Virus record (IMG/VR): IMGVR_UViG_3300018053_000002
Coordinates: 10,063-74,062 of that record
Origin: a virus
Reading direction: 5' to 3' (one strand)
DNA: 64,000 bases
In this document: positions 53,366 to 64,000 of the stretch, in pieces
Numbering within the stretch: the stretch's first letter is position 1
Layout of the letters: every line of letters begins with the position of its first letter
Notes under the pieces: generated by a model
Seen by the model: the letters and a program-made list of their open reading frames with translations, nothing else
What the model was told of the DNA's origin: nothing
Database searches by the model: none
Made by a program: the position numbers and the translations under genes

Positions 53366-54018
53366 TGACCGTTCCCCACGACCGCGACCCGTCCAATATC
53401 AACTATTGCCGGACCTGCCGTACTGCGCTGGAGGTGTTCTACGGCACCGGGCACCTTCAGTACCGGCACACCCGGCCGGGCCATGACGATCACATGCCTG
53501 TACCGACGCCGGTTACCGAGCTGGACCACGTTGAGATGGTCTGTGACTTCTGTTCCGGCCCAGACGTGACGTGGTGCTACGTGCTCTCCGACATTGAGAA
53601 GAAGCAGGGCATCGTCAAGCGGGTCACCGCGGACCTGGCCGACTACCGGGATCAGCACTACGCCGCTCGTGTTCGCAAGGTTCAGACCGAGGGTACTTTC
53701 ACCCGTCACATGGGCGAGCGGTGGACTGCCTGCAATGACTGTTCTGAGGCCATCGAGGCTGACGACGTTATGGCGCTGGTACGGCACGTTACGTCGACAC
53801 TGGCAACCAAGCACACCCGGGCCAATCGAATTGCAGAGACCCGGGCCAAGCTGGTGGTTGCTTACACCGAGATGTTCTCACTGTCCCGGACCCGTGTGGC
53901 TGTCACTAAGGACAACCCGCTCGGACTACCGGGGAGACGACGAGATGACGTTTGGCTCGGGCCGCCTATGGAGCCGGACATGACGTGGTTAGGAGACGAC
54001 GATGCCCCGTCAAGCTGA
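53362..54018 (+). CDS. Zn-binding hypothetical protein
   Basis: CRTC, CDFC, WTACNDC. Confidence 0.7.
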   Translation: MMTVPHDRDPSNINYCRTCRTALEVFYGTGHLQYRHTRPGHDDHMPVPTPVTELDHVEMVCDFCSGPDVTWCYVLSDIEKKQGIVKRVTADLADYRDQHYAARVRKVQTEGTFTRHMGERWTACNDCSEAIEADDVMALVRHVTSTLATKHTRANRIAETRAKLVVAYTEMFSLSRTRVAVTKDNPLGLPGRRRDDVWLGPPMEPDMTWLGDDDAPSS

Positions 54019-55477
54019 TCTTCATGTGCCCAAGCGAGCCCGTATCCTGGCCCGGCTATCAGAGGCCGACGACGAGGAGAACGGCAACGGCAGTAAGGGG
54101 ATCAACGACCAGATCGACGACCTCCGGGCCGAGGCTGCCAGGATGGGCTGGACGGTGCTGGAACCCCCGGTGGTAGAGGACGGCGTCTCTGCTTTCAAAC
54201 GGCGCCGGGTGACCCTCTCAGACGGCCGGAAGGTCTACCGTGTCGTACGACCGGCACTGGCCAAGCTCCTCGACGAGCTGACGTCCGGGGTGGCCGATGG
54301 GTTGCTCGCCTACGACATCGACCGGGCGTTCCGGGACCCGCAAGACCTGGAAGACCTGATCATGGTCGTGGAGATGAGTCGACCACGGATCCCGGTACGG
54401 TCGCTGACCGGCTCGCTCCGGCTCGACAACGACGCGGACATCACGATGAGCCGGATCCATGTCGTGATGGCCAACAAGTCCTCGAAGGACACCGGCCGGC
54501 GGGTTTCCCGGGCCAAGCTCCGTCAGGCGCTCAACGGGGAGTATGGCGGGGGCCGGCGCCCGTATGGGTTCGAGGCCGATGGCGTGACCCCACGACCGTC
54601 CGAGGTGGCCGAGATCGTGAAGGCGGGTGAGGAGATCCTTACCGGTGTCAGTCTCAAGGCCATCGTGCGGGACCTCAACGCCCGTGGGCTCGTCACGGTC
54701 ACCGGTACCCAGTGGACGTCTGACGGGCTGCGTGCGGTGCTCCTGAGGGCGCGCAATGCCGGTCTGATGGTGCACCGGGGTGAAGAGGTGGGGCCGGCGC
54801 CGTGGGATCCCCTCGTACCCGAGGACCAGTGGCGCGTGATCGTGGCCAAGCTGACCGACCCGGCCCGCAAGACCTCCCCCGGCCCGGCACCGCGGTGGCT
54901 CGGCAGTGGCCTGTACCAGTGCGGTGTCTGTGGCTCCGGCCTGCGGGTGCACACCTTTGGCTATGACGCGACCCGGCAGCCCACCTACCGGTGCCAGGCC
55001 ACGGGGGGTGGTCACGTAGCTCGTACCGTTGCCTCGCTCGATGCTGCCGTGGTCGACACGATCGTGAGGTGGATGACGAGCCAGGACGTCTCCGAGCTGG
55101 TGCTCCCACGCACCGAGGGGGTCGACGTGGCCGCGCTGCGAATGGAGGTCATGACTCTTCGGGCCAGCCTGGACGACCTCGGTGCCATGTACGTGGACCG
55201 CACTATCGACAAACGCCAACTGGAGTCGGGCACGAAGCGGGCCCACGTGCGGATGGAGGAGCTGCAACGCACACTGGAGGGGGCGACGGCAACCTCTCCG
55301 CTGGTGTCGTTGGCGGGCGCGCTGGACGTCCGGGCGGCCTGGGAGGCATTGCCACTGGGCAGTCAGCGCCGGGTCATCGAGGAGCTGATGACTGTGACCG
55401 TGCTACCGATCCCTGAGGGTGGTCGTGGGCTCAGCCCGGACACCCTCCGAATCGAACCAAAGAAAGGTGGGTCATGA
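54002..55477 (+). CDS. int: large serine recombinase (integrase)
   Basis: ARLS catalytic Ser; EDGVSAF...RPAL; DIDRAFR; GGRRPYGF recombinase domain; CGVCG...YRC Zn ribbon; coiled coil. Confidence 0.93.
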   Translation: MPRQADLHVPKRARILARLSEADDEENGNGSKGINDQIDDLRAEAARMGWTVLEPPVVEDGVSAFKRRRVTLSDGRKVYRVVRPALAKLLDELTSGVADGLLAYDIDRAFRDPQDLEDLIMVVEMSRPRIPVRSLTGSLRLDNDADITMSRIHVVMANKSSKDTGRRVSRAKLRQALNGEYGGGRRPYGFEADGVTPRPSEVAEIVKAGEEILTGVSLKAIVRDLNARGLVTVTGTQWTSDGLRAVLLRARNAGLMVHRGEEVGPAPWDPLVPEDQWRVIVAKLTDPARKTSPGPAPRWLGSGLYQCGVCGSGLRVHTFGYDATRQPTYRCQATGGGHVARTVASLDAAVVDTIVRWMTSQDVSELVLPRTEGVDVAALRMEVMTLRASLDDLGAMYVDRTIDKRQLESGTKRAHVRMEELQRTLEGATATSPLVSLAGALDVRAAWEALPLGSQRRVIEELMTVTVLPIPEGGRGLSPDTLRIEPKKGGS

Positions 55478-61017: not shown

Positions 61018-61326
61018 ATGACTGACGAACTGGTTCCCCTCGATGCGGTGGCAACCTACATTGACACCTACCGCGCGCTGGACAAGCAGATCCGTGAGTG
61101 GATCATCCTCCGGGACAAATGCCGGGAGCAGATCGAGACGGCGCTGGGGGAATCTGAGTCCGGCGCGGTGGCCGGGATTCCGACCGTGCGGTGGAGTCGC
61201 TACTCATACAAAAAGCTATCCAACGAGCTGCTCCGCAAGAAGTGGACCGAGGACGAGCTGGCCGACTGCTACGCCACCATCGACGCTCGCCGGTTCACGG
61301 TACTTCCCATCGCGAAGGTGGCATAA
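61018..61326 (+). CDS. hypothetical protein
   Basis: Coiled coil; C-terminal RRFTV. Confidence 0.65.
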   Translation: MTDELVPLDAVATYIDTYRALDKQIREWIILRDKCREQIETALGESESGAVAGIPTVRWSRYSYKKLSNELLRKKWTEDELADCYATIDARRFTVLPIAKVA

Positions 61327-61328
61327 AG

Positions 61329-61577
61329 ATGGCCCGGACCCCTGTACGTGCGGACTCACGCGAGCAGTGCGGGGCACCTGTCGTCTACCCGCCGCTTGCC
61401 GAGATTCCTCATTGGTGCTCACGCCCGGCTGGCCACGTTGGACGGGACCACTGGTGCGACGCGCAGATCGAGGCTTGGGCAGCCAGCCTGCCTCGACTGG
61501 TGGATATGTCATCCGAGAAGCGGGCGCGGCTGAGTGTGCTGTTCGCACCGGCCCGTCAAGTCCGGGGCAAACCATGA
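61329..61577 (+). CDS. small Cys/His protein, paralogue of 51653-51874
   Basis: Shared motifs. Confidence 0.7.
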   Translation: MARTPVRADSREQCGAPVVYPPLAEIPHWCSRPAGHVGRDHWCDAQIEAWAASLPRLVDMSSEKRARLSVLFAPARQVRGKP

Positions 61578-62125
61578 AGTATCGAGAGCGGCAAGTTGAG
61601 GTCGACGCCATCCAGTGGTTCAAGAACGGTGATCATCCCGGGGACGGTCCGGCTGATCTGGAAGGCCGGGTCGTGCGCTACTTCCGGCACCCCTACGTAT
61701 CAGGTACGGACGTCCACAGCGAGTGTGAGCGGACATGGCACGACCATGGCTGGATCGATGTTGGAGCGCCAACCAACGGTAAGACGGTCTGTCCAGGTGA
61801 CTGGATCATTTCGGGCGCCGGTGGGGACTACGCGCTCAAGTCTGAGCTGTTTGAGGCCATGTACGAGGCAGTCGAACCGTGGAATCTGGTCACTGCCGAG
61901 CGTGATGACATCAAGGCCATCACCAAGAAGTGGCTCCAGGTCTGCGTTCCCTGCGATGCCGGGGTCTCCGGCACGTGCACCCATCCGGCCGAGGACTACC
62001 GGCCCGTCATCGCCGCACTCGTGGAGGAGTTGAGGCTGACACTCCAGTACCTCGAAGCGGTCCAGCACTACCGCCGGTTGGCCGAGGACCAGGTCATTGA
62101 GCTGATCAACCGGACGACATCATGA
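61574..62125 (+). CDS. hypothetical phage protein
   Basis: MKYR...VEVDAIQW...VCPGDWII...LF...YE. Confidence 0.75.
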   Translation: MKYRERQVEVDAIQWFKNGDHPGDGPADLEGRVVRYFRHPYVSGTDVHSECERTWHDHGWIDVGAPTNGKTVCPGDWIISGAGGDYALKSELFEAMYEAVEPWNLVTAERDDIKAITKKWLQVCVPCDAGVSGTCTHPAEDYRPVIAALVEELRLTLQYLEAVQHYRRLAEDQVIELINRTTS

Positions 62126-62871
62126 CGACGACGTTCGCCGCACCGGCGGTGTCGAGTTCGGTCCACCTGCAACAGATCGTCAGGCGGGCGGCCGAGGCGT
62201 CGCCACGGAACCAGCAGGTGGCGGTGGGCCCGTCCGAGATGGGCGACGAGTGTGACCGACGGCTGGCCTATCGCGCGCTCGACGTGAAGGGTCCGAACAC
62301 CTCGGGCGACCCGTGGCCGTCCATTGTCGGGGTCGCGGTCCACGGCTGGCTGGCTGATGCCTTCACGTTGGAGAACCAGCGGTTGGGCCGGGTGCGTTAC
62401 CTCATCGAGCAACGCGTCTTCATGACCGACGGGATCTCCGGCACGTGCGACCTCTTCGACGTGGACCAGGCCGAGGTCATCGATCACAAGATCCTCGGTA
62501 CCACCTCCATGAAGAAGATCAAGTCGGGGGACATCGCGGCTCGGTACCAGGTCCAGCTTCAGCTCTACGGGTTCGGACTGCGCCGGGCCGGACGCCGGGT
62601 CGAGCGGGTGAGCCTGGCCTGCTATCCGCGGGGTGGCTTCCTTGACGGGCTCTACGTCTGGAGTACCGACTACGACGAGGCGACGGCATTGGCCGCGCTG
62701 GCGAGGTTCTCCAACATCTCGGCGGCGGCGCTCGTGCTCAACCTCGATGACCCGAGCACGTCGTTCTGGGGAATGATCCCGGCCCAACCCACCCCCGAGC
62801 GCTGTGCCTGGTGCCCGTACTGGCGGCCGGGTCGACCTGCTGACTTCACCGGCTGCCCGGGGCCGACATGA
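62122..62871 (+). CDS. Cas4/RecB-like PD-(D/E)xK exonuclease
   Basis: GPSE.G.ECDR; G.AVH; GTCDL.D...IDHK; QLQLYG; C.WCPY...C. Confidence 0.88.
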   Translation: MTTTFAAPAVSSSVHLQQIVRRAAEASPRNQQVAVGPSEMGDECDRRLAYRALDVKGPNTSGDPWPSIVGVAVHGWLADAFTLENQRLGRVRYLIEQRVFMTDGISGTCDLFDVDQAEVIDHKILGTTSMKKIKSGDIAARYQVQLQLYGFGLRRAGRRVERVSLACYPRGGFLDGLYVWSTDYDEATALAALARFSNISAAALVLNLDDPSTSFWGMIPAQPTPERCAWCPYWRPGRPADFTGCPGPT

Positions 62872-63389
62872 CCACCACCGCTGGAGGGACCATGGCTACT
62901 ATCGATCTTCATGCACTCGTTGACCGTGTACTGGACGAGACTGACCTTGTTCCATCTGAGGACATCACAAGGAAGGTTATTAAACTCCTCCGTGAGGACC
63001 AGCTCCGTGACGCTCTTTACATTACCTTGCTCGTCTTTGTCAGACAGCGCATGAGCTTCCGACACAATAGGACGGGGGTCAAAGCAGCATCGAATCCAAA
63101 TCTGCCTCCAATTAAAATTGTGGGCCGGTCGGCGAAAGTGTCCGGTTATCGCCACTGGGCGCCATGGCTGCGGGGACGTTATGATTCAATCCAGCAAATG
63201 CTCGGTAACTGCACTCAAGACAATCTGCTAACCCTGATTAAAGAACGTCGGACGCACGCTGCGGACACCAATGCCGCCGCCGATCGGCTTCAGAAGATTT
63301 ATAACGCAATGATCGAGCACGACGTCCAGCGTGTCATCGACCTTCCGGCAGACGTGCTCAAGCTCCTCGGCGAGGAGTGGACGTCATGA
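62868..63389 (+). CDS. hypothetical helical protein immediately upstream of array
   Basis: ATGA coupling; visibly more AT-rich than neighbours; stop codon 4 nt before the first array unit. Confidence 0.75.
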   Translation: MTTTAGGTMATIDLHALVDRVLDETDLVPSEDITRKVIKLLREDQLRDALYITLLVFVRQRMSFRHNRTGVKAASNPNLPPIKIVGRSAKVSGYRHWAPWLRGRYDSIQQMLGNCTQDNLLTLIKERRTHAADTNAAADRLQKIYNAMIEHDVQRVIDLPADVLKLLGEEWTS

Positions 63390-63393
63390 CTAT

Positions 63394-64000
63394 CCGCCCG
63401 ACCAAACACGCCTCGACACCCATACTCGGATCGTTGGGGGGCGGGTCCAAATCTGCCGGCCGCCACACTACGGACGACACCCATGTTACTCTCGCGACCG
63501 GCAACAACTCCCACCCGACCAAAGAGAAGCCGACATCCACCTTTCCCGCGTCGGGTGGGCCCACTTCCCTCGTGACCAGTGTCCAGTCGACACCCAGACT
63601 ATCTCCGTCACGGGGGACTAAATCCGCCGGTCGCCATTCACCATTCGATATCCAATCGACTCGCGCGACCGGTACCAACTCCCACCCGACCACAGAGACG
63701 ACGACATCCACAGCGCATCCGTCGGGTGGGCCTAAATCTGTCGGCCGCCAGATCCTCACCGATACCCGCCCCCAGGGCGCGGCCGGTACCAACTCCCGCC
63801 CGACCACCTTGACGGCGATACCCACGCTCTCATCGTCGGGTGGGCCAACTTCCCCCGTGACCATAGAGATCACGACACCCAGTCCTTCAACGTCACGGGG
63901 GACCAAATCTGCCGGCCGCCAAGTGCCCTCCGATATCCAAAAGGATTGCGCGACTGGTACCAACTCCCACCCGACCGGCAACAACTCCCACCCGACCAAA
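63394..64000 (+). repeat. TIGR-like dual-spacer stem-loop array (10 complete units, 1 collapsed, 1 truncated by window end)
   Basis: Unit = 8-bp stem, CCA, N9, CGAYAYCCA, N9, CG, complementary stem, 8-10 nt linker; all spacers 9 nt and unique. Confidence 0.88.

Follow-up and report, generated by a model that had tools for sequence, protein, structure and literature searches.

A stem-loop TIGR array in the 5' part of a probable tasA-type gene of a temperate actinophage-like virus

The window, meaning the whole 64,000-nucleotide stretch of DNA that was analysed, comprises bases 10063-74062 of a 74,062-bp IMG/VR record that is linear and 81% complete by CheckV. At its right-hand end lies a tandem array of stem-loop units, directly preceded on the same strand by a gene for a 173-aa protein, here called the partner. 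The features needed for what follows are these:

54002-55477, large serine integrase (phrog_95, E 1e-61)
62868..63389, plus strand, 173-aa partner gene (phrog_4604, function unknown; PHROG E 3e-15, full length)
63386..64000, plus strand, 5' part of a tasA-like open reading frame, open at the contig end, with the array inside it and a low-complexity peptide as its product
63394..63959, plus strand, stem-loop TIGR array of 10 complete units (motif match, pairing, covariation and folds)
63965..63971, plus strand, beginning of the 5' arm of another type-B unit (sequence reading)
63972..64000, no strand, assembly loop-back, 29 nt that are an exact copy of 63495-63523 and are unreliable as genome sequence

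Judged by its head genes, its serine integrase and a G+C content of 60-65%, the virus that carries the array is a temperate actinophage-like virus. It encodes a large terminase and a capsid-protease fusion, and its head genes are nearest to those of Rhodococcus, Gordonia and Mycobacterium phages, in keeping with the actinophage origin originally proposed from the letters of the DNA; the serine integrase makes it probable that the phage is temperate. At 61043-62871, before the partner gene, are two genes overlapping end to end, one for a 360-aa protein (phrog_419, unknown function) and the other for a 249-aa PD-(D/E)XK-like protein (Pfam E 1.5e-4), and both probably share a rightward operon with the partner. 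The predicted structure of the partner is all-helical (pLDDT 76, pTM 0.33), and searches of Pfam, PDB sequences, Foldseek and VIA gave no meaningful match, only generic helical hairpins at Z of 5.4 or less.

The array consists of ten tandem copies, in one orientation, of a unit with the formula stem-CCA-N9-CG-AYAY-CCA-N9-CG-stem', in which two 14-nt CCA-N9-CG intervals flank AYAY and the stem encloses them. Across the whole 64-kb window the pattern CC[AG]-N9-CGAYAYCC[AG]-N9-CG has exactly 10 matches, spanning 63402-63950, with no match elsewhere in the window and no further credible unit in the rest of the genome. This pattern match reproduces, in place and in form, all ten of the units of about 57 nt that the original prediction had described, and the spacer pairs are as it listed them, all 20 being 9 nt long and all different, with the one CCG falling in unit 7. 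The units are as follows, each with its pair of spacers:

63394..63442, plus strand, unit 1, bulged stem; AACACGCCT / TACTCGGAT
63454..63503, plus strand, unit 2, type A stem with one C.A mismatch; CACTACGGA / TGTTACTCT
63510..63559, plus strand, unit 3, type B, 9-bp stem; AAGAGAAGC / CCTTTCCCG
63566..63617, plus strand, unit 4, type C, 10-bp stem; GTGTCCAGT / GACTATCTC
63626..63673, plus strand, unit 5, type A, 8-bp stem; TTCACCATT / ATCGACTCG
63681..63730, plus strand, unit 6, type B; CAGAGACGA / CAGCGCATC
63739..63788, plus strand, unit 7, type A, inner box C is CCG; GATCCTCAC / CCCCCAGGG
63795..63844, plus strand, unit 8, type B; CCTTGACGG / CGCTCTCAT
63851..63902, plus strand, unit 9, type C; TAGAGATCA / GTCCTTCAA
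63910..63959, plus strand, unit 10, type A, mismatched stem; AGTGCCCTC / AAAGGATTG

Box C is CCA at 19 of 20 positions and CCG at the remaining one, and CG is found at 20 of 20. Three stem types recur, running B', A, B, C, A, B, A, B, C, A along the array, with arms GCCGGCCG / CGACCGGC for type A, CCCACCCGA / TCGGGTGGG for type B and (T)CCCYCGTGA / TCACGGGGG(A) for type C. From one unit to the next the spacing is, in order, 61, 56, 57, 58, 56, 58, 56, 57 and 58 nt, which by type means 56 nt from A to B, 57 from B to C, and 58 from C to A and from B to A. Linkers are mostly of 6-8 nt and are longer near units 1-2 and 9-10, and a CU precedes 9 of the 10 stems, as AACU, ACUU or AAUCU. Stems of the same type, together with their linkers, are almost identical and carry unrelated spacers, a combination that suggests block duplication followed by fast spacer turnover. 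The spacers resemble random 9-mers with no excess likeness among them, the mean pairwise identity over the 20 being 2.29 of 9 positions against 2.32 expected from composition; their G+C content is 53%, that of the genome 60-65%. Tandem Repeats Finder reported no repeat at the array, and Rfam gave no match at E up to 1.

That the stems are real structures follows from covariation and from folds that are better than those of shuffled sequence. With the arms extended outward from the core, 7 of the 10 units have 8-10 uninterrupted pairs, while units 2 and 10 have an 8-bp stem with a single C.A mismatch, a position occupied by a T-A pair in unit 5, and the stem of unit 1 is bulged. For covariation, 60 units (set A1: the window's own 10 and 50 taken from 13 further viral contigs) were aligned by the core alone, and nine stem pairs were scored against 500 shuffles. 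Over these 60 units 86.9% of the stem cells were paired against 49.2% in shuffles, none of the 500 reaching the observed value; changes on both sides numbered 203, where shuffles gave 69; and pairing fell to 30-47% when the 3' arm was shifted by 1-3 columns. The expectation that the stems vary in sequence and yet stay paired is thereby borne out, the exceptions being the mismatched units 2 and 10 and the bulged unit 1. Folding of the single units gave energies better than those of shuffles in 7 of the 10 (z from -1.7 to -3.7), with the flanking stem within the minimum-energy fold.

Taken together, the 9+9 spacers, the boxes, the covarying stems and the tandem units match the published definition, and so the proposal of a TIGR-like dual-spacer stem-loop array holds. 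Stem-loop TIGR arrays were described by Faure et al. 2025, with an intervening element that may be variable or conserved (PMC12045711), and the spacer criterion is a fixed length of 8-12 nt, usually 9, as in all ten units here. In such arrays box C may be CCA, CGA, CTA or CAA and box D may be TG or CG (Xu et al. 2026, 10.64898/2026.09.09.750476), and TIGRFinder works with eight box combinations, CCA with CG among them (10.64898/2026.09.09.750476); the reading of CG as a box-D variant is correct in that the CCA/CG pair belongs to this set. Arrays inside the tas coding sequence, a CUU at the stem base and repression by TasA have likewise been reported (Xu et al., 10.64898/2026.09.09.750476). The array of the window is thus a stem-loop TIGR array of a kind which, including its CCA/CG boxes and its intragenic placement, is already published.

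Its nearest counterparts are the stem-loop TIGR/TasA systems, for which the references used were PMC12045711, 10.64898/2026.09.09.750476 and the preprint of Guan et al. 2026 (10.64898/2026.08.11.744272). PlTasA, from a Peromyscus leucopus gut contig, and BlTasA of Bifidobacterium longum both have two 9-nt spacers between CCA and box D, and with the window they have in common a variable closing stem that covaries, tandem units, short linkers and a pyrimidine (CU) at the stem base, as well as units within the tas coding sequence (for the window a probable one) with the frame unbroken and a Nop protein lacking a nuclease, the last being seen here in relatives. What sets the window apart is a box D of CG in place of UG, an apical element fixed as the 9-nt CGAYAYCCA in the manner of a true loop repeat, an alternation of three stem types whose blocks keep the frame, and a conserved gene for the 173-aa partner ahead of tasA; the rest of the window phage's tasA would lie beyond the contig end. 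With dual-repeat TIGR (TaTasR, PDB 9MTY, an entry cited by both Faure et al. and Xu et al.; SpTasH of a Salicola phage) there is a common tandem-spacer logic and a CCA box C, the A-rich tetraloop-like loop repeat of TasR guides resembles the inner CG-AYAY-CCA here, and the Nop domain is homologous to that of the relatives' profile A2 described below (E 3e-23 for TasR, 3e-13 for TasH). However, dual-repeat arrays have conserved edge repeats and 36-nt tigRNAs where the window array has variable long stems, and TasR and TasH are effectors with RuvC or HNH that cut DNA, whereas the Tas of the relatives is without a nuclease domain.

More distant systems have parts of the same design. Box C/D sRNAs and snoRNAs and the IS110 bridge RNAs likewise have two guides flanked by C/D boxes and Nop-type binding, but box C/D RNAs have RUGAUGA/CUGA and a K-turn, and the window units, with CCA and CG as their boxes, have neither; the expected targets here are moreover DNA and not the rRNA of box C/D sRNAs, and, compared with bridge RNAs, the units are multi-copy and have no RuvC-Tnp transposase near them. 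CRISPR arrays too carry tandem variable guides between constant elements on a mobile element, yet with identical repeats of about 25-40 nt and spacers of about 30-40 nt, in contrast to the constants of 2-9 nt and paired 9-nt spacers of the window, where the array is also without cas genes.

It had been claimed that no plus strand frame spans the array, and this is contradicted by a plus frame that from GTG 63377 or ATG 63386 stays open to 64000, over 208 codons. ATG 63386 overlaps the stop of the upstream gene (ATGA, 63386-63389). Taken on the window alone the open frame is weak evidence, because with the spacer bases shuffled the frame still stays open in 22% of trials (p about 0.22). Most single-unit spacings are not multiples of three, but the blocks A-B (114 nt) and A-B-C (171 nt) keep the frame. 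The invariant nucleotides fall in two frames, one for type A units and the other for types B and C, and so CCA, CGAYAYCCA and CG are conserved as nucleotides and not as codons. The window frame is weakly similar (E 5e-6) to the N-terminal part of a Tas reading frame in a related locus, L088. An open minus strand frame at 63358-63999 was rejected, as it has no support in relatives, whose arrays run with the tas strand.

Since the window and the record end together, the array is cut off by the end of the contig. The final 29 nt copy 63495-63523 exactly and a Logan contig carries the identical back-joint, from 63971 to 63495, all of which points to a repeat-induced assembly break and not to a genome terminus, and makes the apparent start of an eleventh unit at 64000 untrustworthy. 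The loop-back passes through the repeated type-B stem, so that a biological origin of the 'collapsed unit' at the end is improbable. The real array is longer than ten units, since Logan contigs from four freshwater-sediment runs contain extra units in which the stems recur with different spacers, such as TTCGACGCG / GTCGTAGCT. Attempts at extension gave Logan contigs of only 67-170 nt, all of them inside the array and none reaching tas, and exact-pattern scans of metagenome contigs for a continuation of the array gave no match. A search for RNA runs containing this stretch found none.

No Nop-domain gene had been seen in the window, and this stands for the whole 74 kb, in which neither the Pfam Nop model (PF01798) nor a related Tas protein used as query found a match. 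PF01798 also found none in five related records, and it misses the Tas of these viruses because the family is too diverged for the model. As to the further expectation of such a gene just beyond 64000, the part that stands is its association with the array, which in relatives lies in or beside a Nop-domain Tas gene, but a separate gene is improbable: most likely the tas of this phage is the very reading frame that runs through the array, and tasA would continue past 64000.

A BLASTN comparison of the last 3.4 kb of the window with cultured phages gave no match, and a search for related loci with the partner protein alone found none. Relatives came instead from a scan of IMG/VR with GACCA-N9-CGAYAYCCA-N9-CGTC, which gave 48 loci, many of them with arrays. 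In L007, L014, L018, L020, L026, L027, L035, L038 and L031/L052 the array occupies the 5' portion of a reading frame with a conserved last part of about 250 aa, and partner homologues stand directly upstream of the array or tas in loci found in this way (L031, E 5e-15). The protein of one array-bearing frame on its own matches TasH (E 2.6e-5), and a profile of ten relatives' Tas sequences (A2) matches TasR (PDB 9mty_A) at E 3e-23, aligned to residues 110-295 of 9mty_A, and TasH (21kl_A) at E 3e-13, as expected of the coiled coil and C-terminal Nop domain by which TasA is recognised. Ahead of the relatives' Nop domain Pfam detected no RuvC or HNH, the N-terminal part being array-encoded low complexity, and it is this Nop domain without a nuclease domain that makes the relatives' proteins TasA-type. 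In L052, at 1341 as oriented, a stem-loop unit sits within an insertion in the Nop-domain region of tas, which fits the published intragenic units.

The converse search with profile A2 gave 80 Tas loci from IMG/VR, of which about 63 have at least two stem-flanked units on the tas strand, 5' of tas or inside it, and nearly all of the array-bearing loci among the 80 use CCA and CG boxes. Units lie inside the tas stop-to-stop frame upstream of the domain in 46 of the 80 loci, within the domain region in 21 of the 80, and only outside the tas frame in ten of the 80; in every related locus but one their orientation is that of tas. Of 58 distinct loci, 32 have no stop in the tas frame from the end of the upstream gene as far as the Nop domain, while the other two frames are clear in 5 and 4; for the 45 loci with at least two units in that interval the corresponding numbers are 27, 3 and 3. 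Arrays are thus as a rule part of the tas coding sequence, in accord with what Xu et al. report for stem-loop systems, although in 18 of these 45 loci a stop breaks the tas frame before the domain and the array may there be a leader. A profile of nine partner sequences (A3) finds the partner family in 72 of the 80 Tas loci (L060-L139), immediately upstream of tas and in the orientation of tas, and across these loci its stop codon often overlaps the tas frame. With its partner gene, its overlapping start codon and an array in an open frame, the window thus holds the conserved left half of this module.

Cultured phages have the module too. TBLASTN with a related Tas domain found 90 cultured-phage records (83 Mycobacterium, 5 Gordonia, 1 Rhodococcus and 1 Arthrobacter), annotated as 'hypothetical protein', 'transposase' or 'DNA binding'. 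In Gordonia phage Spooky (MK937597.1 35283-37027, locus L054) gp49 is the partner homologue and gp50 is TasA, the two overlapping by 4 nt, and gp50 has six embedded CCA-N9-CG...CCA-N9-CG units, one of which ends in TG, with stems of 5-14 bp. Mycobacterium phage Pinto has no unit by the strict pattern.

Overall the locus is best read as a stem-loop TIGR array that a temperate actinophage-like virus carries in the 5' portion of a tasA-type gene, with the Nop domain of that gene past the contig end, and we give this reading a probability of roughly 0.88. The expression, processing, translation, targets and biological role of the array are inferred, and the scheme would run as follows. A rightward operon (with the PD-(D/E)XK-like gene, the partner and tasA as its last members) would give one transcript, and no promoter-like site was found at the array itself. 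The first 600 nt or more of tasA would form at least ten hairpin units, each to be excised in the short linkers, and the CU before 9 of the 10 stems recalls the published CUU processing motif. Each tigRNA, of about 50 nt, would have an 8-10-bp closing stem and two pairs of C/D boxes, one next to the stem (CCA...CG) and one at the apex (CG-AYAY-CCA), to which a TasA dimer may bind. The two 9-nt spacers would then pair with opposite strands of a single 18-bp DNA site, one strand of which would read as spacer A and then the reverse complement of spacer B. Since the homologous Tas proteins of relatives are without RuvC or HNH, it is more likely that the complex binds and blocks its site, so acting as a repressor, than that it cuts. 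The DNA of the array is probably also translated, which would give TasA a disordered N-terminal tail.

Whether the array is indeed translated is where a rival has most weight. The array could be transcribed with tasA as an untranslated 5' leader, the true tasA start lying downstream of the last unit, as the stops in the tas frame in 18 of the 45 loci with at least two units between partner and Nop, the ten loci with units solely outside the tas frame and an open frame in the window that may be chance (p 0.22) would all allow. That is nevertheless unlikely, if with an appreciable chance of being right, given that ATG 63386 overlaps the partner stop as ATGA just as gp49 and gp50 overlap in Spooky, that among 45 loci the tas frame stays open in 27 and each of the other frames in 3, and that the spacings of 56, 57 and 58 nt sum to 114 or 171 per block and so keep the frame. 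The same open frame across the entire array, with a mean period near 57 nt or 19 codons, could be pressed to the opposite extreme, in which the repeats are only a coding low-complexity repeat, disordered and with a period of about 19 aa, and have no RNA function. Such a repeat would be expected to appear in relatives as a conserved peptide with unpaired stems, and the opposite is observed: the invariant nucleotides are read in two frames in different units, the stem arms vary by compensatory pairs, the spacers are random-like and the same units occur outside any reading frame in relatives, all of which makes a purely coding role very improbable.

The absence of any tas from 74 kb of a record that CheckV puts at 81% complete could instead mean an orphan array, or one served by another effector such as the partner protein, in a phage without tas. 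However, the contig breaks inside the array through the repeat loop-back, tas follows within about 1.2 kb of the partner in 72 of 80 relatives, and partner and array without tas occur in none of the related loci examined, and so we regard a phage without tas as improbable. Lastly the repeats might act as DNA, whether as palindromic protein-binding sites (iterons or operators) or as recombination sites, since dimeric proteins could recognise inverted repeats whose centres vary, and a serine integrase is encoded at 54002-55477. A DNA-level role is hard to reconcile with G-T (G-U) pairs being tolerated on the plus strand only, with units pointing as tas does in all related loci but one, or with a unit that equals, box for box, an RNA whose complexes are solved, and it is given next to no credence.

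Targets for such guides were looked for with a geometry in which one strand carries spacer A, a gap of 0-2 nt and the reverse complement of spacer B, as an 18-bp site, this geometry being fixed by the 3' overhangs of TasR and by an unwinding junction beside the first paired guide nucleotide. The paired 9+9 matches that had been anticipated showed no enrichment above chance in the phage's own genome, in related loci, in IMG/VR or in genomes, and a role against competing elements, as originally suggested, would be conjectural. In its own 74 kb there were three matches at 3 mismatches, with about 3 expected by chance. Related loci totalling 418 kb had 5 matches with at most 2 mismatches against 0.5 in shuffles, an enrichment that was dropped when a larger test gave 7 for the predicted geometry and 5, 3 and 1 for controls. 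For 327 spacer pairs searched against 1.92 Mb the predicted geometry did no better than three control geometries: its counts at 0, 1 and 2 mismatches were 4, 6 and 144, the four exact matches being the loci originally fetched with those patterns, and the controls gave 0/4/155, 1/9/146 and 0/3/136. Exact scans gave 1 and 3 matches in IMG/VR and 61 and 59 in 185,579 genomes, which is chance level, and the genome matches were spread over all phyla with no clustering by taxon. For the target predicted for unit 8 (gap 1), IMG/VR contains a single exact match, at L056:7967-7985 in a viral contig of 64% G+C, where chance predicts one. A candidate unit 5 target, 16 of 18 positions with gap 1 and one of the matches from the 418 kb, in the partner genes of Pinto gp71 (L055:2036) and of L007:13703, was set aside since it is not significant beside control geometries; in these two distant phages the match falls on the stretch encoding INHYES.

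As one more stem-loop TIGR array for the field, of a kind already published, the array is unsurprising when taken alone. What is of more use is that the module of partner, embedded array and tasA occurs in cultured, genetically tractable phages such as Spooky (gp49-gp50), and so the native role of TasA and the origin of its spacers could be studied in a natural host by way of cultured actinophages, with the conserved gene directly upstream of tasA as a candidate accessory factor. A word search of the TIGR papers of Faure et al. and Xu et al. found no mention of a gene like the partner, and in the same papers a ParB-like partner is known for some dual-repeat TasA loci. Tentatively, and with the odds somewhat against it, actinophage TIGR-TasA might be a three-part module in which the 173-aa partner is a required accessory factor and the guides double as the coding sequence of the TasA N-terminal tail, in which case guide release and effector translation would compete on one mRNA. 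The partner, which would be translationally coupled to tasA, is present in 72 of 80 loci and has no recognisable fold, might serve for instance in tigRNA processing or loading, or in spacer turnover. In L068 a homologue of the PD-(D/E)XK-like protein is found downstream of tas.
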